Virus record (IMG/VR): IMGVR_UViG_3300047322_000252
Location: 1 to 64,000 of that record
Strand: one strand, 5' to 3'
Length of the DNA: 64,000 nt
DNA from: a virus
The position numbers and the translations under genes were made by a program. The notes under the pieces were generated by a model. The model ran no database searches, was not told the DNA's origin, and saw only the letters and a list, made by a program, of their open reading frames with translations. Positions 1,923 to 22,655 of the stretch are shown here, piece after piece; position 1 is the first letter of the stretch; the number at the start of each line of letters is the position of its first letter.

Positions 1923-1983
1923 TGTGACAACAGTCACTGCTGCCTGACGTTGTGAGAACACAACGATCCGGTACCATTGACAT

Positions 1984-2139
1984 TGACAGCGGGGTGGTGC
2001 GAAAGTAAGCCTCCCCAAGGCAGTACCCCATCGACCCGGTTGTGGCCGGGCTACGAGAGGGGAGTGGAGCGGTCCGACGTATCGCCTGGCTCATCCCAGG
2101 CAGAGTAGGCAAGGTCGGCACACTGCCCCGCTGTCACCA
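1984..2139 (+). ncRNA. Candidate structured RNA 1 (about 155 nt)
   Basis: 16-bp closing stem 1984-1999/2121-2136 with 2 G-U pairs; internal stems CTCCCC/GGGGAG, CCCGGT/GCCGGG, CCGAC/GTCGG, GCCTGG/CCAGGC; -10 TACCAT at 1972; ends ACCA. Confidence 0.7.
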
Positions 2140-2165
2140 ACACCCCTGACCGAGAAAGGCCCACC

Positions 2166-2786
2166 GTGGCACAGACCCAGCACATCAAGAGCGCCCGCAA
2201 GACCAAGGACGGCGACCGGCCCACGTGTCACACGTGCCACAAGCCCATCGAGGTCGGCCAGGGCTACTACAAGAACAGCCCGAGCCGGTTCTCTGCCACG
2301 TACTCCTGGCACGAGGGCTGCCCCGGACCCAGGGCCAGCACCCTGGAATCCAACGAGAAGCGTGGCGCTGCCTACGCTGCCTGCGAGGACGCCGACGACG
2401 CCGTGGAGGCCATCGATGGCGTCCTGGACATTCGAGATGGCGGCGAGCCGGTCGAGGTCACCATCGAGGCCCGAGTCAAGTACGTGATGGAGTGCCTGGG
2501 CGATGCGTTCACCGTCCTGGGCGACGGCATCCAAGAGGCCGCTGAGATGTGGCGTGAGAGCGCCAGCAACATCGAGGAAGGCTTCGGTCACGAGACTGAG
2601 CGCTCCCAGGAGATGAACGACCACGCCGACGTCTACGACGACGCCGCCAGCGAGGCCAGTGACAACCTGCTGGACCAGATCACCGAGTGGGACCCCGACG
2701 CCGAGATGGACTTCGATGAGTGGCTGGACCAGGCCAAGGCCGAGGCCCACGACGCCATCGATGGCGTGTACGGGATGATCGACTGA
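2166..2786 (+). CDS. Hypothetical protein, N-terminal Zn-binding motif and acidic helical C-terminus
   Basis: GAAAGG RBS; CHTC...HEGC; 206 aa. Confidence 0.8.
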   Translation: MAQTQHIKSARKTKDGDRPTCHTCHKPIEVGQGYYKNSPSRFSATYSWHEGCPGPRASTLESNEKRGAAYAACEDADDAVEAIDGVLDIRDGGEPVEVTIEARVKYVMECLGDAFTVLGDGIQEAAEMWRESASNIEEGFGHETERSQEMNDHADVYDDAASEASDNLLDQITEWDPDAEMDFDEWLDQAKAEAHDAIDGVYGMID

Positions 2787-2787
2787 C

Positions 2788-3661
2788 ATGAGCACCACCT
2801 ACCCCTGCCTCTTGCCCACCGTGCCCGCCAGCCGCTGGTACTTCAACATCACCCGCATCACCGGCACGGCCACCAAGGTCAACGAGATGAACGAGCCGGT
2901 GATCTACTGCTCAGTCGAGGCCGACAGCGTCGAGGGAGCCGAGCGTCACGCCCTGGCCTGCCTGCACCACGACTACGAGGACAACCTGGAAGGTGCCCAA
3001 GCCAGCGCCTCCCAGGCCGGTGGTGGCTACTTCGTCACCGTTCGGTTGAGGCCGTACCTGTGATGGGCGCTCCCGATCGTCGTGACCCACGCAACAACCC
3101 CGAGGACGCCTACCAGGCGTTCATGAACATGCCCAACAGCGAGTGGAACGGGCTGATCGCCAGTCTGTTCCACGGTGGCGTGCTCACCCCGGCCGAGCAG
3201 GAGGGCTTCGACCGTGCGATCAAGAACCGTGCGGCGCTGAATGGGCCGAACGGCCTAGACCCTGACGTGGTTGTTGTCAGAACGTCTGATACACTGTTGT
3301 CAGAACAACAGCGAGAGGACACCCCTGACATGGACGAGGAAGCAACCTGGATCGTCTCCATCGAGCGTCCGGACGGCACCACGTTCGTCTGGCAGGTGCA
3401 GGACATGGACCTATACGCCAGCATCGTCGGCGCCATCATCGACCTGACCGGCCACACGGCCGACGTGGTGGGTGCGTGATGGACGACACCACCGATCCCC
3501 GCTCACCTGGTGAGCGCCCCCGCAAGAACCAGTGCCAGATCAACGGCCTGGACGTGCGTGACATGGGCGACCGCCAGCTACTGCGTGAGCTACGCAAGCC
3601 CTGGGGACCCAACCTCATGGACATGATCCGAGCCGAGGCCCGGTGGCGCAACCTGGTGTGA
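2788..3661 (+). CDS. Small hypothetical genes (2788-3063; 3060-3479 with probable internal start at 3330; 3476-3661)
   Basis: Overlapping start/stop codons; internal promoter at 3247-3295 and GAGAGG RBS before ATG3330. Confidence 0.6.
3245..3306 (+). promoter_or_regulatory. Composite early promoter inside ORF 3060-3479
   Basis: CGAA..CCTA at 3247, GTTGTCAGAAC at 3273, -10 TACACT at 3290, second GTTGTCAGAAC at 3296. Confidence 0.65.
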
Positions 3662-3757
3662 ACGCTCACACCATTGACACTGACAGGCCGAATGGCCTAT
3701 GTCACTCCTGGTGGTGGCGTTGTACCCTCATGACTGAACCCTAAGAAAGGGGACTGC

Positions 3758-4381
3758 ATGAGACGACGCACCACCGTTGGGGCGATCATGTTGGTGGCGG
3801 GCTTTGGCCTCGTTGGTGGTGCTGCGTTCATGGGCACCGCTGGTGCTACTGGCAACGTGGAGCACTGCACCGATGGCAATGGGCAGGACGGGGTCAACAA
3901 CCCGCACTGCACCACGGACGACAGCACCCCGCCGTCGTCCACGCCGGACAGCACCCCACCGTCGAGCACCGTGGACAGCAGCGTGCCGGACAGCACGCCG
4001 CCCTCGTCCACGCCTCCACCCTCCGACAGTGTCCCCCCGCCCGACTCGTCGGTGCCGCCGCCTGACAGCAGCGTGCCACCGCCTGACTCATCGGTCCCGC
4101 CCACCACGCCGCCTTCGGTGGTGGACACCACGGTGCCCCCCAGCATCGTGACGACCGTGCCCCCGAGCGTGGTGACCACGCCAGCGCCTACCCCCACCAC
4201 GGCGCCAGCACCGGACACCACGCCCGCCCCGGCTGCCCCAACGACCCCGCCCGGATCGTTGCCCAGCACCGGCTCCACCACCCTCCCCCTCCTGCTTGGC
4301 TCCCTTGGCGCCCTGTTGGCCGGTGGTGGACTGATCGTCCTGACCAGGCGGAATGAGGTCGGGACAGCGCTCGCAGCGTAG
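3758..4381 (+). CDS. Secreted Pro/Ser/Thr-rich protein with LPXTG-type sorting signal
   Basis: N-terminal signal peptide; PDS(S/T)(V/T)PP repeats; LPSTG, hydrophobic helix and RR tail. Confidence 0.85.
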   Translation: MRRRTTVGAIMLVAGFGLVGGAAFMGTAGATGNVEHCTDGNGQDGVNNPHCTTDDSTPPSSTPDSTPPSSTVDSSVPDSTPPSSTPPPSDSVPPPDSSVPPPDSSVPPPDSSVPPTTPPSVVDTTVPPSIVTTVPPSVVTTPAPTPTTAPAPDTTPAPAAPTTPPGSLPSTGSTTLPLLLGSLGALLAGGGLIVLTRRNEVGTALAA

Positions 4382-4407
4382 GCGGATCGCTCTGCGAGCA
4401 ACACACG

Positions 4408-4441
4408 GCGCCCCTGGTCACAGCGACCAGGGGCGCTTTGT
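4408..4441 (+). terminator. Intrinsic terminator
   Basis: 12-bp stem GCGCCCCTGGTC/GACCAGGGGCGC followed by TTTGT. Confidence 0.8.
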
Positions 4442-4447
4442 AATATA

Positions 4448-4499
4448 GTCCGAATGACCTACGAAATCCGGTTGTGTTCTGACAACAGTTCGCTATACT
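4448..4499 (+). promoter_or_regulatory. Composite early promoter P2
   Basis: CGAA..CCTA at 4451, GTTCTGACAAC at 4476, -10 TATACT at 4494. Confidence 0.8.
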
Positions 4500-4526
4500 G
4501 ATCCTTGTAAGCAACGCAGCACCTTG

Positions 4527-4774
4527 ACAACTGAGCCGGGACCCACGAAGCACCATGCAAGTACCCCGATGAAAGCGCCCTGACGGTTAACGACCACGTC
4601 TGGCCCATGCGAATCAGCGCTACGGCCAGCGATCCCTGAACGAAGGCGTGTGGAGGGCGAAATCCGCCGTGAGAGAAGTGGGAGAACAGCCCGAACGAAA
4701 GCCGAGAGTATCCCCGGAGTGCGCACGATGGGGGGAGGGTAGGTGGACAAGTAGGACTGGCCCGGCTCAGTTGT
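4527..4774 (+). ncRNA. Candidate structured RNA 2 (about 250 nt, raiA-motif-like words)
   Basis: Perfect 14-bp closing stem ACAACTGAGCCGGG/CCCGGCTCAGTTGT; internal stems CTGGCC/GGCCAG and CGCCCT/AGGGCG; purine-rich linkers; no credible ORF; directly after P2. Confidence 0.75.
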
Positions 4775-4809
4775 GAGAGTGTTGTGAGAACCTGAAAGGA
4801 CCCTGACCC

Positions 4810-5556
4810 ATGAGCAATCCCAAGAACCTGCAAGAACTGGCCGACAGCCTGGCCGAGCAAGCCCGCACCATTCGCCAGTCTGGTCCTGGCACCTACGCCG
4901 ACAGCTTCCAGCGGGCGGGCTATGCCGATGCCCTGTTGGACACGAGGGCCACGGTCCTCGCCATGATCGCTGAGCAGCGGCCCAAGGGTCTGCACAAGGC
5001 CAGCCCTGATCCCGACTACGCCCACCTGTGCATCCATTGCATGCTGAACATCAAGCACCTGCCTGCGGGCCAGGGCTGGGTCCACGAGGGCACCGGCATG
5101 GTGGTCGGTGACGGTCCTGCTGACGTGTGCCCCGAGTGTGACTGCCCGATTGACGACCATCACGAGGCCTGTTCACGCCTCATCGGTGGCGACGAGGTCA
5201 ACAACGCCAGCCCTGCCGTGGTGGCTGCCATGAACGAGGCCCTGGTGCGCTACCAGTACCAGGTGCTGGTCGATGGCACGCCCATGCAGCACGGCCCGTT
5301 CGACCCCACGAGTGCCCACCACCCACGCAGCGCTGCTGCTACGTACCAGGAAATCAACCCCGAGGCCACGGTGGTCATCCAGTACCGGGACAACGAGGGC
5401 GATGGCGTGTGGACCACCAATGAGCCGAAAGGCTCAGTTCTGATGCACTGCCACGATCCTCGTCACGATGAGCCGTGCCCCTTGCCTTGTGCTGCGTGCG
5501 AGGACGAGTGCGACCCGGCCTTCGCACGCAATGAGCCGAATGGCCTACCGGCCTGA
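4810..5556 (+). CDS. Hypothetical multi-module Cys/His-rich protein
   Basis: GAAAGGA RBS; several CxxC/H motifs. Confidence 0.75.
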   Translation: MSNPKNLQELADSLAEQARTIRQSGPGTYADSFQRAGYADALLDTRATVLAMIAEQRPKGLHKASPDPDYAHLCIHCMLNIKHLPAGQGWVHEGTGMVVGDGPADVCPECDCPIDDHHEACSRLIGGDEVNNASPAVVAAMNEALVRYQYQVLVDGTPMQHGPFDPTSAHHPRSAAATYQEINPEATVVIQYRDNEGDGVWTTNEPKGSVLMHCHDPRHDEPCPLPCAACEDECDPAFARNEPNGLPA

Positions 5557-5593
5557 CGTGTGTTGTGACAACACATCAGGTACACTGACTCCC
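5535..5593 (+). promoter_or_regulatory. Composite early promoter P3 (leaderless)
   Basis: CGAA..CCTA at 5537, GTTGTGACAAC at 5562, -10 TACACT at 5581, ATG at 5594. Confidence 0.78.
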
Positions 5594-6991
5594 ATGAGCA
5601 GATACACCACCCCTGGCCCCTGGTCCTGCATCAAGCGGACCAACATCACCGGCTTCTACGGCTCCCGCATCGGCGCCGTCCAGATCGAGACAGGCCCCCT
5701 CGTGGATGGTCGCAACGGCCAGCGCTACGAGGATGGCGCCCACAAGGTCACCGTCACCAAGAGGCCCGAGGCCTGCACTGGTGGCTGGCCCCGAGGCAAG
5801 ACGTTCAAGGGCGAGACGGCCTGGTCCAGCGCTGAGCGCTACCGGGACGACTGCGTCCACATGATGGAGAAGTACGCACGAGAGGAAGGCCTGTGATGGC
5901 CCGCACACCCCGCCATAGCCCCTACGACCCGCAGTTCGCTGACAAGCCCGACCACGTGAGCGACAACACCTTCGACCTGGTCGGCAACATCATCGCCTTC
6001 GAGAATGGCGAACTGGACGAGGACGAGTGCATCGCTTTCTTCCAGCACCTGGTCAACACTGGCCTGGCCTGGTCCCTGCAAGGCACCTACGGCCGCACGG
6101 CCATGGCCCTGATCGAGGCCGGGCTGGTGACACGATGACCACGCCCTGGCAAGACGATCGCACGGTCGGCACCATCAACATCGGCCATGTCAATGTCAGT
6201 GACCTGCTGAGCAAGCTGGTCGAGTTCTCGCTGCGCTACGGCGCCGACCTGGACCTGTACATCGATGGCAACAACCTGGTCATCTTCGCCCCCCGGGGCG
6301 CCGCCACTCAGCCCCTCCCTTTGGAGGAACGCCGAGAGGTCGGCATGCACTGGCTGGCTGACATTCTTGGAAGGATCACACGATGAGCACCTTGGAGGTC
6401 CACCACGACGAGGAAGTGGGCACCGTGCTGGTGGTCCAGCGCTACCAGCGTGCCCGAGTCGCATACCAGTGTGATGCGTGCATCACAGGCGGTCCCATCG
6501 TCAAGGGTGAGGTCTACCGCTACGTTTGGAGCATGTTGGAGGGCGACAGCCTGGTCCAGCGGTTCCACGCCGGGTGCGTCTAGTGCCCCGCCTGCGCCTC
6601 TTGGAGCCTCTTGGAGCGCCTTTGGAGCTATCGGCGCCCCGGAGGCCCAAGCTGGCCCAGGTGGCCGCTCAGTGCCCCTTCTGCCGTGGTGCTGGCTACC
6701 TGTACGGCCGAGTGCTGTGCCCCACGTGCGAGGGCGCTGGTGTCGCCTAAGACGTCCAGCGGGTGGTTCGGCCTGGCGTGCTTCAACGCCCTGAGCCACG
6801 AGCAGCAGCGCATGCTGATCGAGGACGGCGTGCTGCCGTTCGGCCGCAAGTGGCCCGAGGGCGCCGGGTGCGAGCGTGGTGCGAGCGTGGCGATCGAGGT
6901 CGAGGGCGACGAGGCACCAGGGCCACGCTTCTACTGCGTGCCGTGCGGCATCGAGTACCTGCGCACCGTCACCATTGACACTGACACGTGA
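5594..6991 (+). CDS. Operon of six small genes (5594-5896, 5893-6138, 6135-6386, 6383-6583, 6583-6750 with CxxCxGxG Zn finger, 6740-6991)
   Basis: Chain of overlapping ORFs; 5893-6138 carries a common phage motif (ENGEL..LVNTGLAWSLQGTYGR). Confidence 0.7.
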
Positions 6992-7040
6992 CCGTTGTCA
7001 CAACACGCTCCGTGGTCGATACCTCACACCGTTGTGAATG

Positions 7041-7100
7041 GTCCGAAATACCTACGAGTATGACGACTGTTCTGACAACAACGGGACTAGACTCGCTGGT
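7041..7100 (+). promoter_or_regulatory. Composite early promoter P4 (leaderless)
   Basis: CGAA..CCTA at 7044, GTTCTGACAAC at 7069, -10 TAGACT at 7088, ATG at 7101. Confidence 0.78.
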
Positions 7101-7871
7101 ATGACCAGCAAGCCCGCCTCCGAGAGGCAGTACGCCTACCTGACCACCCTGCTGAACGAGCGTGACCCGGCCGTGACCGGCGTCCCCGACGTCGCAGCCT
7201 TCATCCAGTCCCTGCGGGACAACGGCGCCACCAGCGCCCAGGTGTCGGCCATCATCAAGGCCGTCCTGGCCCTGCCTAAGGCCGCTGCGCCTGCCGGTGC
7301 TGCCCCTGCGGGCCGGACCAACAACTACGGCGCCAAGTGCGTCAAGTGCGGCGTCTACGTGCCTGCCGGTGCTGGCGTCATCACCAAGAACAGCGCTGGC
7401 AAGTGGGACACCACCCACGTCCAGCCCTGCCCCGAGGTCGAGGCCAAGCTGCCCACGCCTGACGTGAGCACCCTGACCGAGGGTGTCTACGTGGACGAGG
7501 ACGGCACCGTGTGGAAGGTCTACACCGGCCGTCAGTCGGGGCGCCTGCAAGCTGCCACGCTCACCAACCACGGCGACCACGGCACCTTCGAGTTCGTGCG
7601 TGGTGGCCTGCGCATGGTGGCCGATGCCCTCGTGGCCCGGACCATGCGCCTGCTCACCCAGGACGAGGCCGCTGCGTTCGGGCGCCTGAACGGCTTCTGC
7701 TGCAACTGCGGCCTGGCGATCGAGGACGATCGCAGCGTGGCTGCCGGGTACGGACCCAAGTGCGCCACCAACCTGGGCTGGTGGTACCCCACCTACGAGG
7801 AAGCCGCCGCCATCCTGGGGCGCCCTGTCACCAAGCCTTCCGGCGTGGTGGTCCAGCCCCCCGCTGCGTGA
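7101..7871 (+). CDS. Zn-finger protein with C-terminal DUF6011-like domain
   Basis: CCNCGLAIEDDRSVAAGYGPKCA fits the recalled CxxCG..L.D..S...G.GP.C pattern; second CVKC motif. Confidence 0.75.
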   Translation: MTSKPASERQYAYLTTLLNERDPAVTGVPDVAAFIQSLRDNGATSAQVSAIIKAVLALPKAAAPAGAAPAGRTNNYGAKCVKCGVYVPAGAGVITKNSAGKWDTTHVQPCPEVEAKLPTPDVSTLTEGVYVDEDGTVWKVYTGRQSGRLQAATLTNHGDHGTFEFVRGGLRMVADALVARTMRLLTQDEAAAFGRLNGFCCNCGLAIEDDRSVAAGYGPKCATNLGWWYPTYEEAAAILGRPVTKPSGVVVQPPAA

Positions 7872-7883
7872 CCGTTGTCACAA

Positions 7884-7944
7884 CAGGGATAGGGCCGAAA
7901 GGCCCATCCCTGAGTGTGTGTTCTGACAACACGCCCGATAGACT
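7884..7944 (+). promoter_or_regulatory. Hairpin overlapping composite early promoter P5
   Basis: CAGGGAT-A-GGGCC GAAA GGCCC-ATCCCTG hairpin; CGAA at 7896, GTTCTGACAAC at 7920, -10 TAGACT at 7939. Confidence 0.7.
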
Positions 7945-7982
7945 GACGCTTGCCAGTCACCCACCGAGAGGAACCCCTGACC

Positions 7983-9206
7983 ATGCCCACGCACCGCACG
8001 CCCCCCACGCCCATCCGGCGCCACCTGAGCCGCCAGCACACGAACACCGTGGCTGCCAACGCCGTCATCTCGCAGGCGTTCTTCCCCGGCATGGGCTGGT
8101 CGAACCTGACCCACCTGCCCCTGCCCACCCGTAGCGCCATCTGCGTGCTGCGTGACCGGGGCGCCACCATGCTCGCCGTGAGCTACGCCAAGCCTCACAC
8201 CCGTAACCGGGTGACGGCTGACTTCACCGTGGCCGAGTGCCTGGTGGCGTCATGAGCACCGTCCGGCACCCCAACCACGTGGTGATGGCGACCGGCTCCG
8301 AGGTCATCCACGCCGCCTCTGACGTGGCCCTGGCCCAGCGCCGCCACGTCCTGGCCTGCAACGGTCGAGCCATCCAAGGCGGTGCCTGGGATGACGTTGT
8401 GACCAAGGTCACCTGCAAGGCCTGCCTCCGGGCGCTCGCCTCCGGGCGGGCCGTGTGGATCGGGCGTGCGTCATGATCCACGCCCTTTCCGCCGATGCCA
8501 CCTTCCCCGCCATGGTGGTGACCGTCACCTGTGAGGACGGCGCCATCAGGCACGCACCCTTCGCCAGCATGGCCGAGGCCCGCACCTGGGCCGAGTGGGG
8601 TCACTGCTGCACCAACCGCCACCGCTTCACGAGTCACCAGGAGAACCCGTCATGACCACCACCAACAACTGCCCCGTCTGCGGGACCGAGGTCACCGTGT
8701 GGGCCGACCTGTCGGGCGGGATCACCGTCAACTTCCGGTGCCCGAACGAGGCCTGCCCGGCAGGCAAGGCACCGTGGGACACGCCCGAGCCGGGCGTGGA
8801 CTACGAGCCATCGGTCTGCATGAACTGCGGCGAGGACGAGCACACGGCCGAGGAACTGGCCGAGTGCATCGACTCAGTGACCAATCCCTGGCCCGGCATC
8901 GAGCGCAACGTGCCGGTCACCCCGGCCCTGCGGCGCCGGTTCGTCTCCCGTAACTGGTGCTTCGGCTACAACGGCCACAGCATCTACCAGCTTGGCACCC
9001 TGCCTGCGGACCTGTACGCCGTGACCTGGGACCGGGATCACAACCCGGTGATCACCGGCCGCATCAAGGGCGCCAGCACACAGAGCACCGCCGACCTGAT
9101 CGCTTTCCTCTCCGAGTGGGAAGGCTGAGCGATGACGGACGAGCAGCGGGCCGCTGTGTACTTCCTCGTGATCAACCGGGGCGAGGAAGGGGACGACGAC
9201 GAGTAG
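7983..9206 (+). CDS. Operon of small genes (7983-8255, 8252-8476, 8473-8655, 8652-9128, 9132-9206)
   Basis: GAGAGGA RBS; ATGA overlaps; Cys motifs. Confidence 0.7.
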
Positions 9207-9207
9207 C

Positions 9208-9463
9208 TGACCAGGCCACGGTGCGCCGCAAGCACCGACACGACTGGTCAATCAGTTCTCGCCCGCAAGGGCGAGGGCTGGTGAGAGTGCATCGCCCCCG
9301 GGTGGTGCGTTGTCACCAGCCCCATGGGCCACGGTGCGCACTGCCCCGGCAAGGGTGCTGCGCAGCGGCTGGCATGGCCCAGCACCAGGACAAGCACACA
9401 CGGCGCATTGCCGTGCGACGTCTGTGCCCCTGTGTGTCGTCCGTTCGAGTCGGGCATGGGGTA
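9208..9463 (+). ncRNA. Candidate structured RNA 3 with tRNA-like acceptor/T-arm module
   Basis: Consecutive hairpins with GCAA loops; acceptor-like GCCCCAT 9319-9325/ATGGGGT 9456-9462; T-arm GTCCG TTCGAGT CGGGC 9439-9455. Confidence 0.65.
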
Positions 9464-9549
9464 TTACGTGTGTGAATCTCGTCACACTAGGCCACAATAC
9501 CTAGTGTTCTGACAACAGAAAGGGCCTCTGACCAGCTATTATGTCTCTC

Positions 9550-11100
9550 ATGAGCAACGCACCCATCACCCCTGACAGCCCCCTGGCGGGCCTGTTCGCC
9601 CAGGTCGTCGGCACCGCTGCCGTCGTCGCCGCCACCAACAACCTGGCCCCGGTCCTGTCGTTCGACACCCTGGCCCTCCCCCTCATGGCCCACCAGGTCG
9701 AGGCCGTCCAGCGCATCCACCACGACGTCGCCACCTACGGCGGGAGCTACGTGGGCGATGACATGGGCCTTGGCAAGACGTTTGAGGCCCTAGCGGCTGT
9801 TGCCCTGGCCCCGAACAGCTACCCGGCCCTGATCATCTGCCCGCCCTCTGTCACGCTGAACTGGCGCAACGAGGCCCGCCGCCTGATCCCCGGCGTCCGG
9901 GTCGAGGTGCTGAGTGGCACCAAGCCGGTGCTGCCTGCGCCCGCCGACATCTACGTCATGGGCGACAGTGTGCTCGCCGCATGGGCTGGCCTGGCGGTCG
10001 AGAACTACGTGGACAACCGGGACGTGCCCCGCAAGCGTGACGTCGTCCGGGGCGTGCTCACCGCCATGGGCATCCGGGCGCTGGTGGTGGACGAGGCCCA
10101 CCGCTTCAAGTCCTACAAGGCCCAGCGGGCACGTGCGGCCATGGCGTTCGCCGCCACCCTGCCCCGGGGCGCCCAGCGCATCCTGCTGAGCGGCACCGCC
10201 GTGGACAACCGCTCCGAGGAACTGGCGACGCAGATCCGCATCGCTGGCGTGGATCACGTGTTCGGCGGCTGGTTCAACTTCCTGGAAACGTACGCACCCA
10301 AGCAGGGCTATGCCCGGGTGAGCCGTCACAGTGACGAGCTTCACGCCAAGCTGGTGAGCACCTTCTACCTGCGCCGCCTGCGCACCGAGGTCCTGAGCCT
10401 GCCCGGCAAGGGGCGCAAGCTGGTGGCTGCGGCCATGGCCGGTAAGGCTGCCAGTGACTACCTCGCCGCCCAGGACGATCTCATCGCCTACGTGCGGGGG
10501 ACCAAGGGCCGCAAGGCTGCCGAGGTCGCCAGTCGGGCCGAGGCCCTGGTCCTGCTGACCACCCTGCGCCGCCTGGTCGGTGAGGCCAAGGTGGCTGCCG
10601 TGGTCGCCTACGTCCAGGACCTGGTGGACGACGGGGAGCAGGTGTTCGTGGCTGCCTGGCATGCGCCCATGGTCAAGGCCCTGACTGACGCCTTCGGCGC
10701 CGTGAACGTGGTCGGCGGTATGAAGGTCGAGGACAAGCAGGCGGCGGTCGAGGCGTTCCAGAACGGCACCGCCCGGGTGCTGGTGGGCAACATCGTGGCC
10801 GCTGGTGTGGGCATCACGCTCACCGCTGCCCGCCACGTAGTGGTGGCAGAACTGCCGTGGACGCCGGGAGCGCTGGCCCAGGTCGAGGACCGGCTGGACC
10901 GTATCGGCCAGACACGTGAGGTCGTCTCCCACATCATGCTGGGGACGAACGGCATCCCCACGGTGGACGAGCGCATCATGGCGATCCTCAACGAGAAGGC
11001 GGCAGTCACCGGCATGATCATGGACGGCAAGGCTGCCAGCATCATCGATGACGACACGATCAGCGCCGCCCTGCTGGACAGCTACCGGGACGCCGCCTAG
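9550..11100 (+). CDS. SNF2-family (SF2) DNA helicase/translocase
   Basis: DDMGLGKT, DEAH, LSGT, GVGITL, QVEDRLDRIGQ motifs; -10 TATTAT before a leaderless ATG. Confidence 0.93.
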   Translation: MSNAPITPDSPLAGLFAQVVGTAAVVAATNNLAPVLSFDTLALPLMAHQVEAVQRIHHDVATYGGSYVGDDMGLGKTFEALAAVALAPNSYPALIICPPSVTLNWRNEARRLIPGVRVEVLSGTKPVLPAPADIYVMGDSVLAAWAGLAVENYVDNRDVPRKRDVVRGVLTAMGIRALVVDEAHRFKSYKAQRARAAMAFAATLPRGAQRILLSGTAVDNRSEELATQIRIAGVDHVFGGWFNFLETYAPKQGYARVSRHSDELHAKLVSTFYLRRLRTEVLSLPGKGRKLVAAAMAGKAASDYLAAQDDLIAYVRGTKGRKAAEVASRAEALVLLTTLRRLVGEAKVAAVVAYVQDLVDDGEQVFVAAWHAPMVKALTDAFGAVNVVGGMKVEDKQAAVEAFQNGTARVLVGNIVAAGVGITLTAARHVVVAELPWTPGALAQVEDRLDRIGQTREVVSHIMLGTNGIPTVDERIMAILNEKAAVTGMIMDGKAASIIDDDTISAALLDSYRDAA

Positions 11101-11174
11101 TGGCCTCATCCCTACAGCGTGCATGAGCACGCCACCCCATTGACACTGACACACTCTCACCCCACTACCCCCAC

Positions 11175-13611: not shown

Positions 13612-16164
13612 TCGCCTACTACGCCGTCATCGGCGCTCTGGTGGGCGTGGCCGTGGGTTTCGCCATCGTCAAGTGGGTGTGGCACCCCAATCCCAAGATC
13701 GGCGTCAAGACGGCCGACATCGACCTGAACGACCCCCGCTACGTCATCGATGACGTCAGTGCCCGAGCCGGGTTCGTGTGCAAGAACCTCGACGGCATGG
13801 GCTGGTACGAGAAGGGCCACATCGAGCTACCACCCGAGAACCACCGCTGCTGGACGCAGACCTGGGCTGAGATGACGGACTTCACCTTCGTGCGCCGCTG
13901 CCCCTGTGGCGCCATCAGTATGAACGACCCCAGCAACAACGACGTCTACTGGATGGACCGCAACGAGACGAGGAAGAGCCGATGAGCGATCACCAGTTGG
14001 CCATGACCGTGGCTGAGCTACGGGAGTTCCTGGTCGCCCTCAACATCAAGGGCGTGGTCCTCACCGAGGCCCTGGGCGCCGCCTGGCAGTTGTACGGCAC
14101 CGATCTGCGGCCCCAGGACTGGAATGGGCCGGTGGAGCGCCCTCTGGTGGACGACCTGGCCGGTGTTCTGTCAGCAACGGTGGTCGGCTGGGAAGCGGTG
14201 ACCGGGCATGACCTGAGTGAGGCTCCGGAAGTGAAGCGAGTACTGGCCCGCTATCACCAAGAGCATCGGTGACGATCACTCGCCAGGAGGGCTTCTACCG
14301 TCTGGCCCGGGAGTACGTCGCCATGCAGGGCGCTCCCCGCACCCCGGGCGTGTTCTCGGAGTTGTACATCCGGGGCTTCGAGGCTGCCGTGGAGACGGCC
14401 TTGGACCGTCAGGAGGAGGGCCGCACCATCTCTTGGGTCCGGCTGGCCTACGACCGGGTGGTGGATGACGTGCTGTGGATGGAGGAGGGGGCCGGGTTCG
14501 TCACTCAGGGGCGGATTGCGACAATAGTCACACTGCTCCAGTTCGAGTGGGGCCTCCACGGTCAGGGCCAGTGGGTCGAGCGGGACTTCGGGGACGACGA
14601 CATGAACATGCCCGAGTGGATGCACGTCTGCCGCTTGGGCGACATCATCGGTCACAAGGAGAACGACGTGCTGGAGATCTGGCGCTTATGGCCTAGTGGC
14701 TGGGAGAAGTGGGTCGTCTAGTATGAACCGTATGAGCGAGTGGCCGAGGCCCCTGGTGGCCTGTATAGGATTCGGAATGATGATCGCCTACTGGGGCGGC
14801 GTCCAGGCACGGAAGCGAGGCTGGGTCCATGGCTGAGTTCGTCATCGAAGACGAGGGGCTGTTGGAGCGCCTGGAGTTGTACCGGCGCCAACGCTTCGCC
14901 CCGACCCTGGACGAGGCCCTGCGGCGCCTCCTGGACAAGAACCTGCCCGAGTTGCACCAACTCAACGAGACGGAGCACGCCAAGGTCATGGAGCGCCTGG
15001 CCCTGCGCCAGCGCCGGGAGGCAGCAGCCATCGCCAACCGGGCCAAGTGCGTAGGCCTCCAAGGTGACTGAACCCACTGACATTGACATCCGTGACCTGT
15101 TATGGCGTCTCCGTGGTTACGACATGGGCATCTGTGATGAGGCTGCCCACGCCATCCAGGTGCTAGAGGCCCGGTTGGCGTTCAGCAGCGTCGAGCGGAG
15201 TTTGGGTCAGCGAGCGGCCCGTCTGGTGGCCGACATGCTCCAGCAGGCAGGCAGGTACCTGACCCATGGCTACGGCGAGATCAACGAGGTGCTGCTGGAG
15301 GCCCGTCAGCGGGGCTGGCTGGAGCCGATCGAGTGAGCGTCGTGCGTGAGCGCAAGGCCTGGGAGCCGTACATCGTCAGTGGCTGCATCACGTTGGTGAC
15401 GCTCGTGCTGACCGTGTGCGCCATCATCCTCATCATCTACAGCGCCATGTTCGCCGTCGCCACCATGAAGGCGCACTGGCCATGAACTGGCCCCTGTTCG
15501 TCATCCTGGTGTGCTGGGTGTTGGTCGTGTTCTCGGGCGTCCGCTACGTCTGCGTCCGCTGGGGCCACCAGCGCTGGAGTGACTGGCCATGAGCGGCATG
15601 GGAGGCGACAACCACTCCGCTGACGGCGTGCTCAACAGCGGTGGGCCGCTGGTGGCTCTGTGCAAGATGGCCGCTGCCTACATGCTGACCGTGGGTGGGT
15701 ACTACGTATTCAAGACGGCGATCCGAGCGATCCGGGTGATGTGGGACGATGACCAACCGTCACGGTAAGAACCGCAACGCCAAGCGGCGCATGGGCCATA
15801 AGCGCCCCGCACCCAGCGATCGCCTGCCTGAGGGAGTCCACGAGACGAACCTGGCTCCATGGGAGCAGCCCTACGCCGTCCAGGTGCCGTCGATCACCTG
15901 CCCGGTGTGCGGTATGACGAGCTACAACCCCACCGACGTGGCCGAGGGCTACTGCGGCAACTGCCACGACTGGACCAGCCGATGAAGCTCAGACGACCGA
16001 AGGATGGTGTCCATTACTCCTGGTACGACCGGGGGTACGGTACGGAGAATCCCTTTCTGGAAGCGGGCATGTTGGTGGGCATGGGGACGTTCTTCCTGGC
16101 CCTCGCTGGGTTCTCACATCTCGTGGGCCTCTACGAGAAGCTGCGCTATCGGCGGGCGAAGTAG
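13608..16164 (+). CDS. Run of small hypothetical and membrane genes (13608-13985, 13982-14272, 14269-14721, 14829-15071, 15064-15336, short TM ORFs 15333-15752, 15749-15985, 15982-16164)
   Basis: Overlapping ORFs with phage codon usage; 15749-15985 has a CPVC..CGNC Zn ribbon. Confidence 0.6.
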
Positions 16165-16190
16165 GCAATGTCAATGGTATGCTTCGTCAT

Positions 16191-16394
16191 ATGACTGTCC
16201 GAACCACCATCTCCATGCCTGACGATCTGTGGGAGCAGATCGAGCGTCAGCAGAAGGACACCGGAGCCAGCACCAGCGAGATCGTGCGGCGAGCGCTAGT
16301 GGCCTTCTTCCCCGCCCCCACCAAGACCAACGGTCGCAAGGCCACCAAGACGGTGACCAAGGCCCCGGCCCGCAAGCGGGTGGTGCGGAAGTGA
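16191..16394 (+). CDS. CopG-like ribbon-helix-helix protein with Lys-rich tail
   Basis: RTTISMPDDLWEQIE...STSEIVRRAL; -10 TATGCT at 16178, leaderless. Confidence 0.85.
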   Translation: MTVRTTISMPDDLWEQIERQQKDTGASTSEIVRRALVAFFPAPTKTNGRKATKTVTKAPARKRVVRK

Positions 16395-16396
16395 CC

Positions 16397-16606
16397 ATGG
16401 ACCCGGAGGAGCTAGCCATCCGGTTCACCTACCACCCGCCCACTCCTGAGCAGGTCCCTCTGTATGCAGAGACTCGGGTGCGGGCGAAGGAACTGGCCGA
16501 GTACATCGACACGACGGCGCCGGACGGTCGAGAGAAGAGCCTGGCCCTCACGCATCTGGACGAGGTCGTGTTCTGGACCAATGCAGCGATCGCCAGGCGC
16601 TCGTGA
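16397..16606 (+). CDS. Acb2/Tad1-like helical hairpin protein (putative immune-signal sponge)
   Basis: RFTYHPP...REKSLALTHLDEVVFWTNAAIAR resembles the Tad1/Acb2 C-terminal hairpin as recalled. Confidence 0.65.
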   Translation: MDPEELAIRFTYHPPTPEQVPLYAETRVRAKELAEYIDTTAPDGREKSLALTHLDEVVFWTNAAIARRS

Positions 16607-16847
16607 CGGCGGGCGAGCTTCGGACCCTCCTGGCTGACTACCCGGATGATGCTGTGGTGGTGGTCGTCTACCACGAGGCCGAGAGTGAGGACGTCACGGT
16701 GGAGCGGGACGAGAACGACGGCCTCGTGTACTGCGTGATCGACGGGTCGTGACTGACCGGATCACCTTCCCCCACTTCAAGCCGGTGGGGTGGTACGGGC
16801 CTGATGGTGTGCTCCACTACTTCAAGGGTGTGTTAGGGTCCCGGACC

Positions 16848-17126
16848 ATGAACAAAGCTGTGGCATTGAAGATCACGTACAACATCCCCATCGGCCGCTA
16901 CGAGCAGGCCATCGAAGAGTTGGGCATGGCGGAAGGCGTCCACGACGCTGGCGGCGCCATCAGCCATTGGGTCGAGGAGACGCCCCAGGGCTTCATCGTC
17001 CACGACGTGTGGGAGCGCCGGGAGGACTTCGACCGCTTCGTGGAGGAGCGCCTGTCGAAGATCGACATGCCCCCGCCCGACGAGGTCCAGGAGACGCCGG
17101 TCTACAACTACCTGGTCGGAACATGA
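16848..17126 (+). CDS. ABM-like dimeric alpha-beta barrel protein
   Basis: GFIVHDVWERREDFDRF motif; -10 TAGGGT before ATG. Confidence 0.6.
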   Translation: MNKAVALKITYNIPIGRYEQAIEELGMAEGVHDAGGAISHWVEETPQGFIVHDVWERREDFDRFVEERLSKIDMPPPDEVQETPVYNYLVGT

Positions 17127-17440
17127 GAAGGCTCATCGCAGCAGCAGTCATCACGGTGGCCTCCGTCTCTCTGGCCGCTCCCGCTTTCGCAGGGGAGATC
17201 AACGGGCAGGGTCTGCCGGTCGGTGGTGAGGGCCTGGGCGCTGCTCACGCTCACTCGATCTGCGCCTTCTCCGGGCTACAGGACGGCGACGGGCTGGGCT
17301 TCCCCGGTCCTGGTGGGGCACCGCCTCAGAACTGGGGTCACATCCCCAAGGACCAGCGGGGCGTCGGTGAGAACGTGCCGCCCGGTACGTCCTGCAACGG
17401 CCACACCGGCTTCCTCGCCCAGGGTGGGCCAACGCCGTGA
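17123..17440 (+). CDS. Small secreted Gly/Pro-rich protein
   Basis: Signal peptide MRRLIAAAVITVASVSLAAPAFA; two Cys. Confidence 0.75.
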   Translation: MRRLIAAAVITVASVSLAAPAFAGEINGQGLPVGGEGLGAAHAHSICAFSGLQDGDGLGFPGPGGAPPQNWGHIPKDQRGVGENVPPGTSCNGHTGFLAQGGPTP

Positions 17441-17820
17441 GGCGGGCGCTGGCAGTAGCAGGGGCGGTAGCCCTCGGAGCGGCGGTCCTGAGTCAGGTGC
17501 CTGCGAGCGCCGCCCCGCTCAACACGCAGAAGGGCATCGTGTTCCCGTTCGTGACCTGCACGCCCTTGCAGCCCGGACTGGGCATCATCCACACCATCTT
17601 CACGGTGGCGGGCAACGGGAGCGGTCCGGCGTTCTTGCAGGACGGCTCCAAGTTCCAGCCCTACTCGCTCCAGATCTTCTTCAACGGCCAGCAGGTGGAC
17701 GGGTTCTTCAAGGCGCCTCTGGTGCCCTCGGCCACCTACGAGTGCTCCGGCACCGTGAAGCAAGGTCCGGTCGATGATCCGGTGGTGACCAGCTTCGTCG
17801 CCAGGGGCATATTCAAGTAA
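17437..17820 (+). CDS. Small secreted protein
   Basis: Signal peptide ending ASA-A; two Cys. Confidence 0.75.
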   Translation: MRRALAVAGAVALGAAVLSQVPASAAPLNTQKGIVFPFVTCTPLQPGLGIIHTIFTVAGNGSGPAFLQDGSKFQPYSLQIFFNGQQVDGFFKAPLVPSATYECSGTVKQGPVDDPVVTSFVARGIFK

Positions 17821-17843
17821 CCCCTGACCTGCATTGACATTGA

Positions 17844-17871
17844 CAGAGGCCCCCCTTCCGGGGGGCCTCTG
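17844..17871. terminator. Terminator hairpin between convergent gene blocks
   Basis: 12-bp stem CAGAGGCCCCCC/GGGGGGCCTCTG. Confidence 0.8.
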
Positions 17872-17890
17872 CTGTACCAGCGGTGGGACT

Positions 17891-20800
17891 CTAGCTCGCC
17901 TGCGCTTGGAAGGCCGACGCTTTATCGCACCGGCCGCAGACCTTGAAGGTCAACTCGGCGCCATCGGCTTCCCGGAAGGTGCGGGTCCGGCCGTTGTCAA
18001 GCGCTGAGCGGTAGTGGATGTTGCACCGGGGCACCCACACGCCATCTCGTTCGATCGAGCGGTGCAGGATCTTCCGCTTCGCCCTCGATCCGAACATGAT
18101 CAGCAGCGGTCCCTCCGGTGGCAGGCTCATACTCGTAGGATACCGAATCGGGGTCGATCAGGCCTGCAAGTCGGAAGGCCTCGACCGCTATCTCTCGGGG
18201 CCTCATGGCCGGAACACGGCGGGCGGTAGGTAGCCGGTCTGGCACAGGGCGCCGAGGGCGGCGGGTACCACCGGCCCCCAGAAGGTCATCACGCCACCAG
18301 CATGGTGGAACTGGACTCCATCGGCGCCGTGGTGGGTGTGCATGATCTCCGAGAAGAGCAGGATGCGGGTGCTGTGCTGCCCCAGGAAGACGAAACGGTC
18401 GCCCTGTACCTGGAAGGTGCCCCAGTCGTGGAATGAGCCGTGGAAGGGCACAGGGAGGGCGCCGAACAGGCTGCCGGACTCGGCGCCGACGAACGCTTGA
18501 CGCTCCCGAGGCTCCTCCAGGGTCACCCGGCACTCGAAGCCGAAGGGGTTGGCGAACCAGTACCGCTCAGCGGCGATCGTGTCGGCGTCAGGGGTGGCGG
18601 GCTGGGTACCGCCGAAGAGTGCTGTGAGGAACTTGCCCATGAGCACAATCATACTCGTATGCGCTCTTATCCGACATGGGCCGTATGCCTCACCAGTGCG
18701 ACGGCCTGATCATGCCCGGCGAGCGCAGCGGCCTCGGTGGGGTAGCGCTCCTGGTACTGATCGTGCTTGCCGCCGAAGATCATCGTCTCGTAGACCAGAG
18801 GCGGGACACCGTAGAAGCCGTAGCCCATGTCGATGCCGAACCACCGGGTGCTGATCCGGACCTCGCCCTCGTCAGTGTCAATGACGTCCTGTTGGACGAC
18901 CGTGTCCAGGTGGTTCTCGATCAGCATCGCCCACAGGCTCAGAGGGATCGGCTTGCCTACCCGGTCGAAGTGGATCGGCGTCCAGATCCGGCCAAGGTGC
19001 CCAGGCGTCGTCCAGTCCGAGCACTCCTGGCAGTACCCCTCGAACTGATCCATCTCGTTGCGGATCGGGTTGTGACACCGGGCGCAGAGCAACACGCACC
19101 TCCTGGGTACGCAGAGTACGCAGGTACCTGACGCAGCACCACGTGATTAGGCGGTAGTCCTCGATCATGGACTCGCCGCACCAGCAGGGGAAGCGGTGCT
19201 TCAAGGCCCAGCGTGTCCCGACGTAGTTCTTGGGGCCGCTGATCAGATGGTTCCGGTGGGTGTCAGAGCGGGGCATCGGCCACGAAGTTGTAGGTGTCCA
19301 CCAGGGCCTCGATGGCGTCGTCGCCGGGCCACACGTTGTCAGGGGGCCAGTTGCCCAGCGCCTGTTGCGTGTGGATGTAGCAGTTGACCCGCTCCACGTC
19401 AGTCACCTGATCAGGGCGTTCAGGCGGTCGATCTCAGCTTGCTGGGCCTCCACCAGGTTGAGGGTTTCCGTCACGCCATTCCGAAGCTGCCACACGGCGA
19501 AGGCCAGGGCTAGGAGGGCGAGGACGAGTAGAGCTATGACAACAGACATCAGGTCATTCTATCCGAGTCTGTCAATGTCAATGCCTCGGTATCCGAAGAC
19601 GGCTCCCATGTCCCCAGGGCTTCCACAGCCACCTGTGCATAAGGCAGGCACCAGGCCGGGTGGTAGCCGGAGAACGGGGGCAGTGTTGACAACGCTCCGG
19701 CGACGTATCGCTCCAGTTCGGTGTAGGCGGCAGGGTCGGGGAATGAGATCGAGTCCGACCAGGGTGGGACATCAGGTGGCATTGGCTTCCTTCGGATGGT
19801 GGACGTCGGTGGGCGGTGGCCTGCTGGCCACCTCTCGGTAGTGGTCTTGCTCGTGGAACCAGGCATCGGCTGGTGTGGCCAGCCAGCCCAGGTGGTGTTT
19901 CCACCCGCACCGGCACCTCAGCCATACGCCGTCTTCCTGCGGGTCTGGCCAGCGGTACGTCAGCCAGACGTGGTGCTCGAACGGTCCGCTATCCAAAGCA
20001 GCGCTCGCACGCATACTCGGCCTTGTCCGAGATCACCTCGAACGGGCCTCCCTGCCACTCGCTCTGAGCGTTGAGATCGACCCCGCACACGGTCACCCCG
20101 TTGCCGTGGCCGAGTGCTGGCAGGTGCAGCACCCGGTCGTCGTTGCCCATGAGGGCGACCGGGAACTCAATCGTCACGGTTCCAACCCAGCAGGCTGTTG
20201 GCCTCGTCCCAGAACGGCGCTGCGTAGTCGGTGGTCGTCTGCTCCGTGCCGTGGATGCACTGGACGGCCATGAGCACGAGGGCGTCGATCTGGGTGTGGA
20301 AGAGGGCGTCGGTCTGGTAGCGCCGGTAAGCCTCTACGTCGCCTACGCCGTTGTGGTCTGCCGCCATGTGCAGCAGTGCCTCGGTGAATCGTCTGGTGAA
20401 TCCCTGGGTGTCGAGCATCAGGACACGATAGGAGCGTCGTTGTTGCCCCTGGTCACCGCAGTAGCGGCGGTCGCCATCAACCTCGTGAGGCTGTGGTCCC
20501 GCCACTCCTGGTCAATGCCCTCACGCTTGCACGTCAGGATGTACTCAGGCACCCAGTGGCTGCTGGTCTGAACCGGCCCACCTCGGCGCAGAACGATCTC
20601 CGAGCACTCGTACGCCTCCAGGAGATCCATCACCGACTCAATCTGCTTTGGAAGCATCGCCTGACTGTACATGGTTCTGACCCATGAACAAGGGCCTTAG
20701 CTTGTCGAGCGGCCAGTCGTAGTCACCGCAGTCAGGGCAGGTTGCGACCCCACGCCTCAGGGAAAGGTTGGGCATCCGGGCGGCTGTCGAGCGGTCCACC

Positions 20801-21660
20801 AGCAGGGTGATTCCGCACGCTGTCACCAAGACCTGGTTCCCCTGATAGCAGACTCGATGTGACGTCCTGGACGGGGAGGGTGATGCCGTCGTCATCCTCG
20901 TCGTCCACCCACTCGTTGAAGACGACAACCTCGCTGTCCACCAGCCGCCACGTCTCTTTGATGACTCGGCACTCGTCGGACTCCTCGAAGAACTCGGTGT
21001 CGGTCACCCAGGCGTACTCACCGTAGATGTCGCTGCCGTCCTCCATGCGGTAGGTCACCCACTGCTTGCCCTCCATGAGGCGCTTGTTCTCGGCGTAGAG
21101 GGCACGAAGCTCCTCCCAGGCCCGAGCTAGCTGGTCGGCCAGGTGTGGGTCGGTGCGCTGGTTCTCCATGAGGCGCTGGAGATCACTGGCGATCTCCAGC
21201 ATCTCGTAGCTGTTCCAAATGGGGCGCTCGCCCTCCCGGTACTCGATCAGGCGCTCGCACTCCAACCGGGTGTGGTCCAGGTTCATGCGGCGTCGTCCGG
21301 TACACGGTTGGCGGGCCACTTCGGCCAGCGGGAGGGAGGCTCGCCCAGCACCTCACGGACTAGCTCCGGGTTGGTCTGGCGCCGGAAGGCCAGTTCCTCG
21401 GGGAACAGTTCAAGCTGGCGCTTGAAGCCTTCTCGGTATAGCTCGTCCACGGTGGTGGACGTCTTCGACATGAAGAAGGCCGTGCCGCCGAGGGTGAAAC
21501 GGTGGTCCCAGGGATCGCTACCCAGGCAGTGCCACATGTGCTGCTTGCCATCCACGGCGGGGAGCCAGCACAGGTCGTCCGGGCAGAGCGGGTTCACCAG
21601 AAGGCACCCGTTCCACTTCTCGGGTACCTCGATCTTGGGTACGCCCCACTTCTCCTTCAT
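17891..21660 (-). CDS. Block of small - strand hypothetical genes (e.g. 17891-18130, 18203-18640 PH-like, 18667-19095, 19549-19790, 19772-20014, 19989-20177, 20167-20430, 20418-20658, 20732-21286, 21283-21660; some starts approximate)
   Basis: Overlapping - strand ORFs with phage codon usage; several leaderless -10 boxes (TATCCT, TATGAT, TACAGT, TAGGAT). Confidence 0.6.
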
Positions 21661-21674
21661 ACTCAGAATCCTAA

Positions 21675-21702
21675 CAGGAAGAGGGGGGCCGAAGCCCCCC
21701 TC
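21675..21702 (-). terminator. Intrinsic terminator
   Basis: GAGGGGGGC TTCG GCCCCCCTC followed by TTCCTGTT on the - strand. Confidence 0.75.
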
Positions 21703-21758
21703 TCACCGCATGCCCCAACTCACCCCGAGGCCTCCAGGAGGAGACAGGGGGCACAGTA

Positions 21759-22037
21759 CTACGGATTCAGAACCTCGTACACCCCGTATCGGGCGACCCG
21801 GAGCTTCATGATGATCTCGGCCTCGTCCACGCCCAGGTTCCGCAGCACCATGCGGGCCTCCGCTGAACCGGGCACGGTCACGTTCTGGATGAGTTCACCT
21901 TGCAGCAGGGTCGTGGCCAGAGTGACCGAGCGGGTCCACACGCAGGTGAAGGGCGGGGTCCCGATGTGAAGGCGGGGCGTCACGCTCGTGTAGCCCTTCT
22001 CCAGGTCGGCGGCGATGAAGTCGTCAGGCGTTTGCAT
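21759..22037 (-). CDS. Hypothetical protein (leaderless)
   Basis: -10 TATCAT just before ATG; MQTPDDFIAAD... Confidence 0.65.
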   Translation of the reverse strand: MQTPDDFIAADLEKGYTSVTPRLHIGTPPFTCVWTRSVTLATTLLQGELIQNVTVPGSAEARMVLRNLGVDEAEIIMKLRVARYGVYEVLNP

Positions 22038-22054
22038 ACTGGTATGATAGCGGA

Positions 22055-22171
22055 TGACGGAGGGGCCGATACACCAAACCATGGCGGGGGAGGGGAGCGG
22101 CCCCTCCGTCAGTTCTGGGGCGTTCCCTCAGGAGAGGGCTGATCAGGCGGGTTCGATTCCCGTACGCTCCG
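22055..22171 (+). ncRNA. Candidate RNA 4: 14-bp hairpin plus anticodon-less tRNA-like module
   Basis: TG-G-TATGAT extended -10 at 22040; stem 22055-22068/22098-22111; acceptor GGGGCGT/ACGCTCC; CCCTC/GAGGG arm; T-arm GCGGG TTCGATT CCCGT. Confidence 0.72.
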
Positions 22172-22654: not shown

Positions 22655-22655
22655 G

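Follow-up and report, generated by a model that had tools for sequence, protein, structure and literature searches.

The first 64,000 nucleotides (nt) of virus record IMGVR_UViG_3300047322_000252, hereafter the window, appear to encode a 54-nt RNA, the mini-RNA. Its letters and predicted fold are those of an alanine-type acceptor/T-arm RNA that has no anticodon arm, and its gene is conserved and structurally constrained. The complete record (118,220 bp with direct terminal repeats, about 65% GC, the window being its bases 1-64000) belongs to an uncultured soil phage. The mini-RNA lies in one (R4) of four intergenic regions, R1 to R4, which a preliminary description of this DNA had grouped as one toolkit of structured RNAs, three of them with tRNA-like parts. 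Our best explanation, to which we give a probability of about 0.55 as a whole, is that the four regions are three different things and not one system: the mini-RNA of R4 acts against the host transfer-messenger RNA (tmRNA), R1 and R2 are structured leaders, and R3 is a hairpin cluster. Three of the four ‘structured RNAs’ would then need no exotic explanation. If the mini-RNA is expressed and charged, the phage would interfere with host ribosome rescue or alanine-tRNA biology by means of a 54-nt RNA.

The acceptor stem of the mini-RNA has 7 bp (GGGGCGU/ACGCUCC, 22117-22123 with 22164-22170), and its third pair is G3:U70, the identity mark of alanine tRNAs. Its 5′ strand is followed by U8, a 5-bp D-like hairpin (CCCUC-AGGA-GAGGG, loop AGGA), an 8-nt linker (CUGAUCAG) and a canonical T-arm, GCGGG-UUCGAUU-CCCGU, with pair probabilities of 0.94-1.00. 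Acceptor and T-arm are 23 nt apart, with neither an anticodon arm nor a tag reading frame, and both stems hold when the whole gap is folded (0.84-1.00). On the two strands of the 118-kb genome there are just four strict T-arm motifs (G-TTCRANN-C, 5-bp stem): those of the two tRNAs, R4 and R3. ARAGORN, and Rfam at gathering score, identify only tRNA-Pro (31337-31411) and tRNA-Ala(GGC) (31432-31506), both without an encoded CCA. ARAGORN calls neither a tRNA nor a tmRNA at R4, and assignment to canonical tRNA (RF00005) was rejected for R4, as for R3, on the lack of an ARAGORN call or a gathering-score match.

R4 is the sole plus-strand unit inside a minus-strand block; by a crude call based on GC content at third codon positions, genes run on the plus strand up to 17820, on the minus strand at 17891-25373 and then on the plus strand again. 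A promoter scan found one site at R4 against 0.1 expected (Table 1). Its predicted start is near 22055, it ends 6 nt before the upstream hairpin, and its −10 overlaps an opposite-strand TATCAT just before ATG 22037(−). The upstream hairpin could be either the leader of the mini-RNA transcript or the terminator of the minus-strand gene 22199-22654. The downstream hairpin, a possible two-way terminator, stands between the mini-RNA and the stop codon of this converging gene. Neither 22199-22654 nor the neighbouring gene 22656-23777 matches a Pfam family.

Table 1. Features of the four regions, in window positions.
Feature	Position	Strand	Description
R1	1984-2139	+	probable structured 5′ leader of gene 2166-2786
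R2	4527-4774	+	probable structured 5′ leader of gene 4810-5556
R3a	9208-9317	+	three consecutive strong hairpins after a 24-codon open reading frame
R3b	9319-9462	+	letters of a 7-bp stem 9319-9325/9456-9462 plus T-arm 9439-9455 (GUCCG-UUCGAGU-CGGGC), enclosing 113 nt
Promoter-like site	22021-22048	+	TCGTCA, 16 nt, TATGAT; TG before the −10
Upstream hairpin	22055-22111	+	perfect 14 bp, 29-nt loop; z −5.4 on +, −5.1 on −
Mini-RNA	22117-22170	+	54-nt tRNA-Ala-like RNA without anticodon arm, from motif and fold
Downstream hairpin	22178-22195	none	6 bp, CUCCCC/GGGGAG, from fold and sequence

A counterpart of the mini-RNA is found in a related viral contig (L120:1608-1661), where it is also 54 nt long and has the same layout. 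The two elements differ at 20 of 55 positions (64% identity), and ten of these differences fall in five base pairs in which both partners changed and pairing was maintained, while one pair of the hairpin is lost. The double-sided changes, from window to L120, are 6:49 G-C->A-U, 7:48 U-A->C-G, 31:47 G-U->C-G, 32:46 C-G->G-C and 11:20 C-G->A-U. Contig L121 is identical to L120 in protein matches, gene calls and mini-RNA element, and we count the two as one lineage. The L120 element lies at another genome position than in the window, where it immediately follows a gene stop plus one copy of a 13-nt repeated word of that phage, which argues that the mini-RNA travels as its own gene. An unrelated contig, L373, carries a 54-nt element with the layout of the window's and further double changes, and G3:U70 is kept in all three. 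Homologs with paired changes, a check proposed in the preliminary description, are available for R4, while none were found for R1-R3. A distant relative, L153, whose helicase is 40% identical, carries at L153:987-1051, upstream of the same gene cluster, a 65-nt element of acceptor, hairpin and T-arm that has G3-C70 in place of the alanine mark; it scores 20.3 bits with our mini-RNA model, and a weaker one is at L153:298-340.

The earlier comparison with tmRNA was apt for R4. Two tmRNA-database papers (PMC4131195, PMC11915505) describe a tmRNA of mycobacteriophage DS6A that consists of the tRNA-like domain (TLD) only, without a coding sequence (‘CDS-less’), and report that a TLD-only molecule strongly inhibits tmRNA in Escherichia coli, perhaps by titrating SmpB; the inhibition was reported for the DS6A or a similar molecule and not for the R4 form. 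Since this is the closest published parallel, we do not regard R4 as a new kind of system. We located the DS6A element at JN698994 28478-28556 (L389:28478-28556), where it is 79 nt long and unannotated in the record, and the mini-RNA model matches it at 32.2 bits (E 1.5e-4) with DS6A outside the training set. Both are stand-alone RNAs of actinobacterial phages with a GGGGCNN/NNGCUCC alanine acceptor, G3:U70 and a UUCGAUU T-loop, and both lack an anticodon arm and a tag reading frame. DS6A, however, has a D-loop and a helix stub between acceptor and T-arm, a layout that we take to be tmRNA-type, whereas the 54-nt R4 has a short D-like hairpin directly after U8 and the 8-nt linker; the discriminator is A in DS6A and G in R4.

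Laboratory-made fragments of the TLD, about 60 nt long, bind SmpB and together with it support peptide synthesis on ribosomes, according to a review (PMC3929946). They have the size range and parts of R4 (acceptor and T-arm, with closure at the point where the remainder of tmRNA is left out), yet they were engineered from tmRNA and retain its D-loop in place of the D-like hairpin. tRNA-Ala and the alanine minihelix share the acceptor GGGGC../..GCUCC with G3:U70, and some viral mini-RNAs described below (L357, L329) retain a D-arm of the tRNA-Ala type; tRNA-Ala differs in having an anticodon arm, and the phage's own tRNA-Ala (31432-31506) has a different T-arm. The mascRNA family (RF01684) resembles R4 in length (about 55-60 nt), in its acceptor and T-arm with a degenerate middle, and in a possible role as RNase P handle, but it is a eukaryotic family without the alanine mark, and R4 scores 14.9 bits against its threshold of 42.5. 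YrlA, a bacterial Y RNA also known from phages, is a further non-coding RNA with a tRNA-like module (abstract of PMC4201824). None of the four regions matches the Rfam YrlA or Y RNA models at E up to 10, and the proposed Y RNA mimicry also finds no TROVE protein among the scanned proteins (see below). The arrangement in YrlA is the opposite of that in R4: its long stem is made by the RNA ends, and a loop caps the ‘acceptor’.

For R4 we infer RNase P processing, CCA addition, charging by alanyl-tRNA synthetase (AlaRS) and competition with tmRNA. The mini-RNA would be transcribed from its own predicted promoter and trimmed by RNase P and 3′ nucleases, after which a host enzyme would add CCA. Host AlaRS, reading G3:U70 and not an anticodon, would charge it, and the charged RNA would then compete with host tmRNA for SmpB, EF-Tu and stalled ribosomes. 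The outcome would be blunted trans-translation tagging during infection, as reported for the DS6A TLD-only RNA. We searched 80 phage proteins out of 173 crude gene calls against Pfam (E up to 1e-4) and found families of replication, recombination, lysis and glycosyltransferase. No Ro60 (TROVE), RtcB, SmpB, CCA-adding enzyme, RNA ligase or other enzyme that handles RNA is among these 80 proteins, so any partner would be a host protein.

We also scanned viral contigs with a pattern of alanine acceptor, 20-38 nt, T-arm and alanine acceptor. There are 110 matches in 109 viral stretches, 38 of them inside ARAGORN genes and so internal accidents. Both acceptor pairs outside the pattern are present in 30 of the 72 free matches, and 29 of these also have a good T-stem; these 29 accepted viral mini-RNAs represent 27 distinct sequences. 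Counted as distinct sequences, 35 of 64 free matches lack both extra acceptor pairs, and one more fails on the T-stem. The discriminator is A in all accepted elements (29/29), and 16 end in ACCA. Among distinct free matches of 57-64 nt, both pattern-external acceptor pairs are found in 19 of 31 against 14% expected (p 1.6e-9). The viral class of alanine mini-RNAs of about 60 nt (57-64 nt) is solidly supported as real, and the 54-nt form rests mainly on the window/L120 pair and L373. In our alignment A2, 98.1% of the cells are paired, a figure that is inflated by selection and is not independent evidence. The mini-RNA model gives the phage's true tRNA-Ala 39.8 bits, and thus reads ‘alanine acceptor plus T-arm’ and nothing finer.

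No tRNA gene is present at 22 of the 29 mini-RNA loci, and no protein neighbour recurs across them beyond a single lineage (L292/L300/L331/L337). The alanine mini-RNAs at L329:6176-6230 and L318:9280-9342 belong to arrays of 17 and 37 tRNA genes, and for one of the two a tRNA-Val is 5 nt away; both are probably processed like tRNAs. Locus L199 has two tRNA-like genes of 75-78 nt (5923-5997 and 6054-6131) with good acceptor and T-arms that are not called by ARAGORN.

The scan suggests that such RNAs, which go unreported by ARAGORN, by Rfam and in the GenBank record of DS6A, are not peculiar to one mycobacteriophage, and the viral mini-RNAs form a concrete and cheap set for asking whether a block of trans-translation helps phage growth. 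A broader reading, which we hold only tentatively, is that phages of many bacterial phyla (locus GC 0.32-0.67) share a family, absent from annotations, of anticodon-less mini-tRNAs of 50-65 nt that accept alanine, are charged by host AlaRS and serve as SmpB/EF-Tu sponges, which would turn off ribosome rescue and tagging, or as non-decoding alanine donors. Such a family would be spread far more widely than the single published DS6A case, the 54-nt RNA of the window being a compact actinophage variant, and trans-translation would be a regular target of phage small RNAs. In literature with little coverage of subscription journals, we found no paper that describes anticodon-less alanine mini-tRNAs as widespread in phages, and a phage TLD-only form only in the two tmRNA-database papers (PMC4131195, PMC11915505).

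All four regions are unusually long non-coding gaps in the early and middle region, with a codon-position GC spread of 0.05-0.18 compared with 0.32-0.45 in neighbouring genes, and the long complementary stems attributed to them are all in the sequence. Relative to dinucleotide shuffles, their folding z-scores are −3.0 (R1), −2.2 (R2), −4.3 (R3) and −3.2 (R4). As background we folded 299 unselected 120-nt segments over 1-24000 with 12 shuffles each, which makes the values noisy (mean −0.54, sd 1.72). Only the R3 hairpin cluster stands out (rank 3 of 299); no R1 or R2 segment is among the best 30 of 299, and segment 22001-22120 is at rank 26. Folding is thus in excess of shuffles for all four regions (z −2.2 to −4.3) but stands out from the genome background only for the R3 cluster. 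There are 38 inverted repeats of at least 13 nt within 400 nt in the window, many inside genes, and in their length ranking R2 is 4th and R1 is 23rd. The strongest local fold of the first 24 kb (z about −8 to −11, few shuffles) is outside the four regions, in a palindrome-dense gap after the helicase gene (11441-11640). The Rfam check proposed in the preliminary description found no family that fits any of the four.

R1 is closed by a 16-bp stem (1984-1999/2121-2136) followed by ACCA, and R2 by a perfect 14-bp stem (4527-4540/4761-4774); both stems hold in whole-gap folding (pair probabilities 0.83-1.00). The preliminary description had noted the ACCA after the stem, and the letters are there, but four letters carry no weight. 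A TACCAT box (1972-1977) lies about 7 nt ahead of R1, and 26 nt separate the end of R1 from gene 2166-2786, whose GTG start follows GAGAAAGG. For R2 the corresponding distances are 28 nt from a TATACT box (4493-4498) and 35 nt to gene 4810-5556, whose ATG start follows GAAAGGA. Of the three −10 boxes said to directly precede these RNAs, those of R1 (7 nt before) and R4 (6 nt before) are in place, the TATACT box of R2 is more distant, and R3 has none. An operator-like word, GTTCTSACAAC, flanks both R1 and R2 (R2 copies at 4476-4486 and 4781-4791) and has 28 matches at one mismatch or fewer against 1.6 expected, concentrated in the first 12 kb. With a box before, a ribosome-binding site and start codon after, and operator-like words on the flanks, the two regions look like long 5′ leaders, and we consider them the probable structured leaders of these early genes. 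On the plainest reading, the closing stem, at or near the 5′ end of the transcript, would protect and stabilize the mRNA or offer a handle for a regulator.

R1 and R2 have no T-loop and no tRNA-like feature. Rfam gives nothing above 13.8 bits on R1, and its best match on R2 is sR36 at 18.9 bits versus 55; a raiA-like identity of R2 was rejected for lack of an Rfam match. A paralogous origin of the two was rejected as well, their local alignment score of 35 being comparable to shuffles (30.7 ± 6.0, with 61 of 300 shuffles as high). Neither a DNA search with 1-20000 in five records, related or candidate, nor blastn (word size 7) of the four gaps against L120-L199 detected a homolog of R1-R3. The L120/L121 genes that correspond to the downstream genes of R1 and R2 have short spacers and no R1/R2 counterpart. 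A 13-mer common to R1 and L120:9909-9921 was also dismissed, as the L120 site has no comparable fold (z −1.05).

R3 begins with the three hairpins of R3a. The plus strand of R3 folds 16 kcal/mol better than the minus strand, so the hairpins probably act in RNA, and they are likely a terminator or insulator cluster between the mini-reading frame and the ribosome-binding site of the helicase. The reading frame itself (9133-9207, 24 codons), which has an acidic terminal run and is directly before the hairpins, could be a leader peptide or nothing. The preliminary description had counted two acceptor/T-arm modules without an anticodon arm; the one in R4 holds (0.84-1.00), and the one in R3b dissolves in whole-gap folding, with probabilities of 0.00 for the acceptor stem and 0.06 for the T-stem. 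From base frequencies we estimate about 0.6 T-arm motifs by chance in the 118-kb genome, and a 7-bp partner within 400 nt upstream of a T-arm as an event of roughly 40% chance. A looser acceptor and T-arm search of the window genome and the loci examined gave 99 matches, 74 of them outside ARAGORN genes and most plainly accidental. Folding of the sub-region 9319-9463 does not exceed that of shuffles (z −1.7), and Rfam finds nothing tRNA-like in R3, the best match being P26 (25.6 bits versus 36) on two hairpins. Given the chance-level motif, the z-score, the lack of an Rfam tRNA match and the loss of the stem in context, we interpret the R3 T-arm as a chance match. A tmRNA-like identity of R3 was rejected, with no Rfam support and the acceptor stem at 0.00 in context.

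These results bear directly on the proposal that all four regions form one early-expressed tRNA-mimic toolkit, with R1-R3 as divergent, enlarged tRNA- or Y-RNA-like scaffolds. All four do occupy unusually long gaps of the early and middle region, and R3 does carry T-arm letters next to a 7-bp stem. Yet R1 and R2 are not tRNA-like and resemble neither each other nor R3, the R3 module occurs at chance rate among common loose matches (74) and is not kept in context, no Rfam Y RNA, tmRNA or tRNA match supports any region, no Ro60 or RNA-repair gene is among the 80 scanned proteins, and R1-R3 were not found in L120/L121. The toolkit reading is largely refuted, and we consider it highly improbable.

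Several observations weigh against our explanation. SmpB binding by R4 is an extrapolation because R4 is without a D-loop and helix stub of the DS6A type; DS6A, L336 and L341 have a D-loop of the ..GGU..CGAC.. type, and R4 does not. Its discriminator (22171) is G where all accepted viral mini-RNAs have A, CCA is not encoded, and the mini element, folded by itself, does not stand out from shuffles (z −1.4). Rfam tRNA and tmRNA models are below threshold on R4, the best being tRNA-Sec at 19.7 bits versus 47, and tmRNA_permuted reaches 8.1 bits (threshold 47) on the T-loop alone. The 46-56-nt class that includes R4 is weakly enriched in viral contigs (9/33, p 0.034) and at chance in cellular genomes (11/70 among the matches listed), and the difference between viral and cellular matches listed is not significant (Fisher p 0.13). 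Conservation is supported by one independent related lineage (L120 = L121), and among records of relatives, G001 and G009 have no significant mini-RNA match and G008 has two weak ones (20.3 and 16.1 bits). For the leaders, the z-scores of R1 and R2 (−3.0 and −2.2) are within about 1.5 sd of the genome background, and no homolog of either was found for covariation.

Other roles for the mini-RNA can be weighed on the same evidence. It might be a processing tag modelled on mascRNA behind MALAT1, in which RNase P, cutting at G22117, would free and define either the 62-nt hairpin RNA that lies upstream or the 3′ terminus of an adjoining transcript, leaving the tRNA-like piece as a by-product. The perfect 14-bp hairpin directly upstream in the same predicted transcript would fit, the Rfam mascRNA-menRNA model aligns exactly to 22117-22170 (although far below threshold, 14.9 versus 42.5 bits), and the L329 and L318 mini-RNAs occur in tRNA arrays, where RNase P processing is the rule. 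We nevertheless find this unlikely: the L120/L121 counterpart has no upstream hairpin, following straight after a gene stop and the 13-nt repeated word, and a mere RNase P handle needs no G3:U70, which all three 54-nt elements have kept. Quite unlikely, in our judgement, is the decoy role raised in the preliminary description, in which R4 would act as a sponge for a host defence directed at the acceptor end or elbow of tRNAs, such as toxins that modify or cut the 3′ end. R4 does retain just the acceptor/T-arm half with the elbow-forming GG loop, has its own early-looking promoter-like site and, across the 29 loci, shows no conserved protein partner; but no defence or counter-defence gene is linked to it, and the anticodon loop, the usual target of tRNA-cutting defences, is precisely the part that is missing.

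The mini-RNA could also be a dead remnant, either a tRNA-Ala decayed by internal deletion or a fragment of a host tRNA or tmRNA of the phage attachment site (attP) type. Fragments of T-arm and 3′ acceptor are common in phages as attachment sites, and 35 of the 64 distinct free viral matches, which lack both extra acceptor pairs, resemble them. By blastn against cultured phages, 504 records match R4 and none covers at least 80% of the query; what matches are T-arm portions of tRNAs and attP sites, the annotated attP of D29 among them. However, an attP core, the 3′ part of a tRNA next to an integrase, needs neither the 5′ acceptor strand nor the D-like hairpin that are present here. No integrase is found among the Pfam matches of the 80 scanned proteins, and the record has direct terminal repeats. 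The five compensatory double changes relative to the L120 copy keep every helix at 64% identity, and we judge a remnant improbable. We prefer the reading of R4 as a mini-RNA acting against tmRNA.

Near-identical copies of the phage occur in 24 soil or rhizosphere runs, all of them DNA. Contigs of four of these runs contain identical copies together with patches of a second, related phage, and of their 160 differences from the window, none of the 40 listed falls within R2-R4. In runs X18 and X22, a 21,138-nt contig of the second phage matches the window in patches of about 80-90% identity (5441-5866, 9679-11014 and 17574-17783) and skips 5867-9678, the stretch that holds R3. Among GenBank phages, megablast of 1900-4900 gave no match, and the SNF2 helicase of the window reaches at most about 34% identity there. 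A single-protein search of viral contigs found no closer relatives. A helicase profile search placed L120/L121 at 67% identity with the next best at 42% or less, and three helicases (P0002-P0004) are 73-77% identical to that of the window. A metagenome scan with generic helicase patterns returned relatives at 36% or less among the matches listed. A scan with a 15-nt repeated word was too unspecific, although three partial relatives turned up by luck.

The 13-nt word CAYTGACAYTGAC abuts the 5′ end of the R1 closing stem (window 1975-1987) and several GC-rich hairpins, with further copies at window 17832 and 3672 and at genome positions 65968 and 116693. Copies follow gene direction and, in L120, often stand just after stop codons; G1 of the L120 mini-tRNA is the next base after the copy at L120:1595-1607. 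This arrangement would suit a promoter or a processing signal, with the product beginning immediately behind the word. The window encodes at 3758-4381 a surface protein that is rich in Ser, Pro and Thr and has an LPXTG anchor (Pfam E 5.7e-4), and a similar Ser/Pro/Thr-rich stretch occurs at L120:690-1593.

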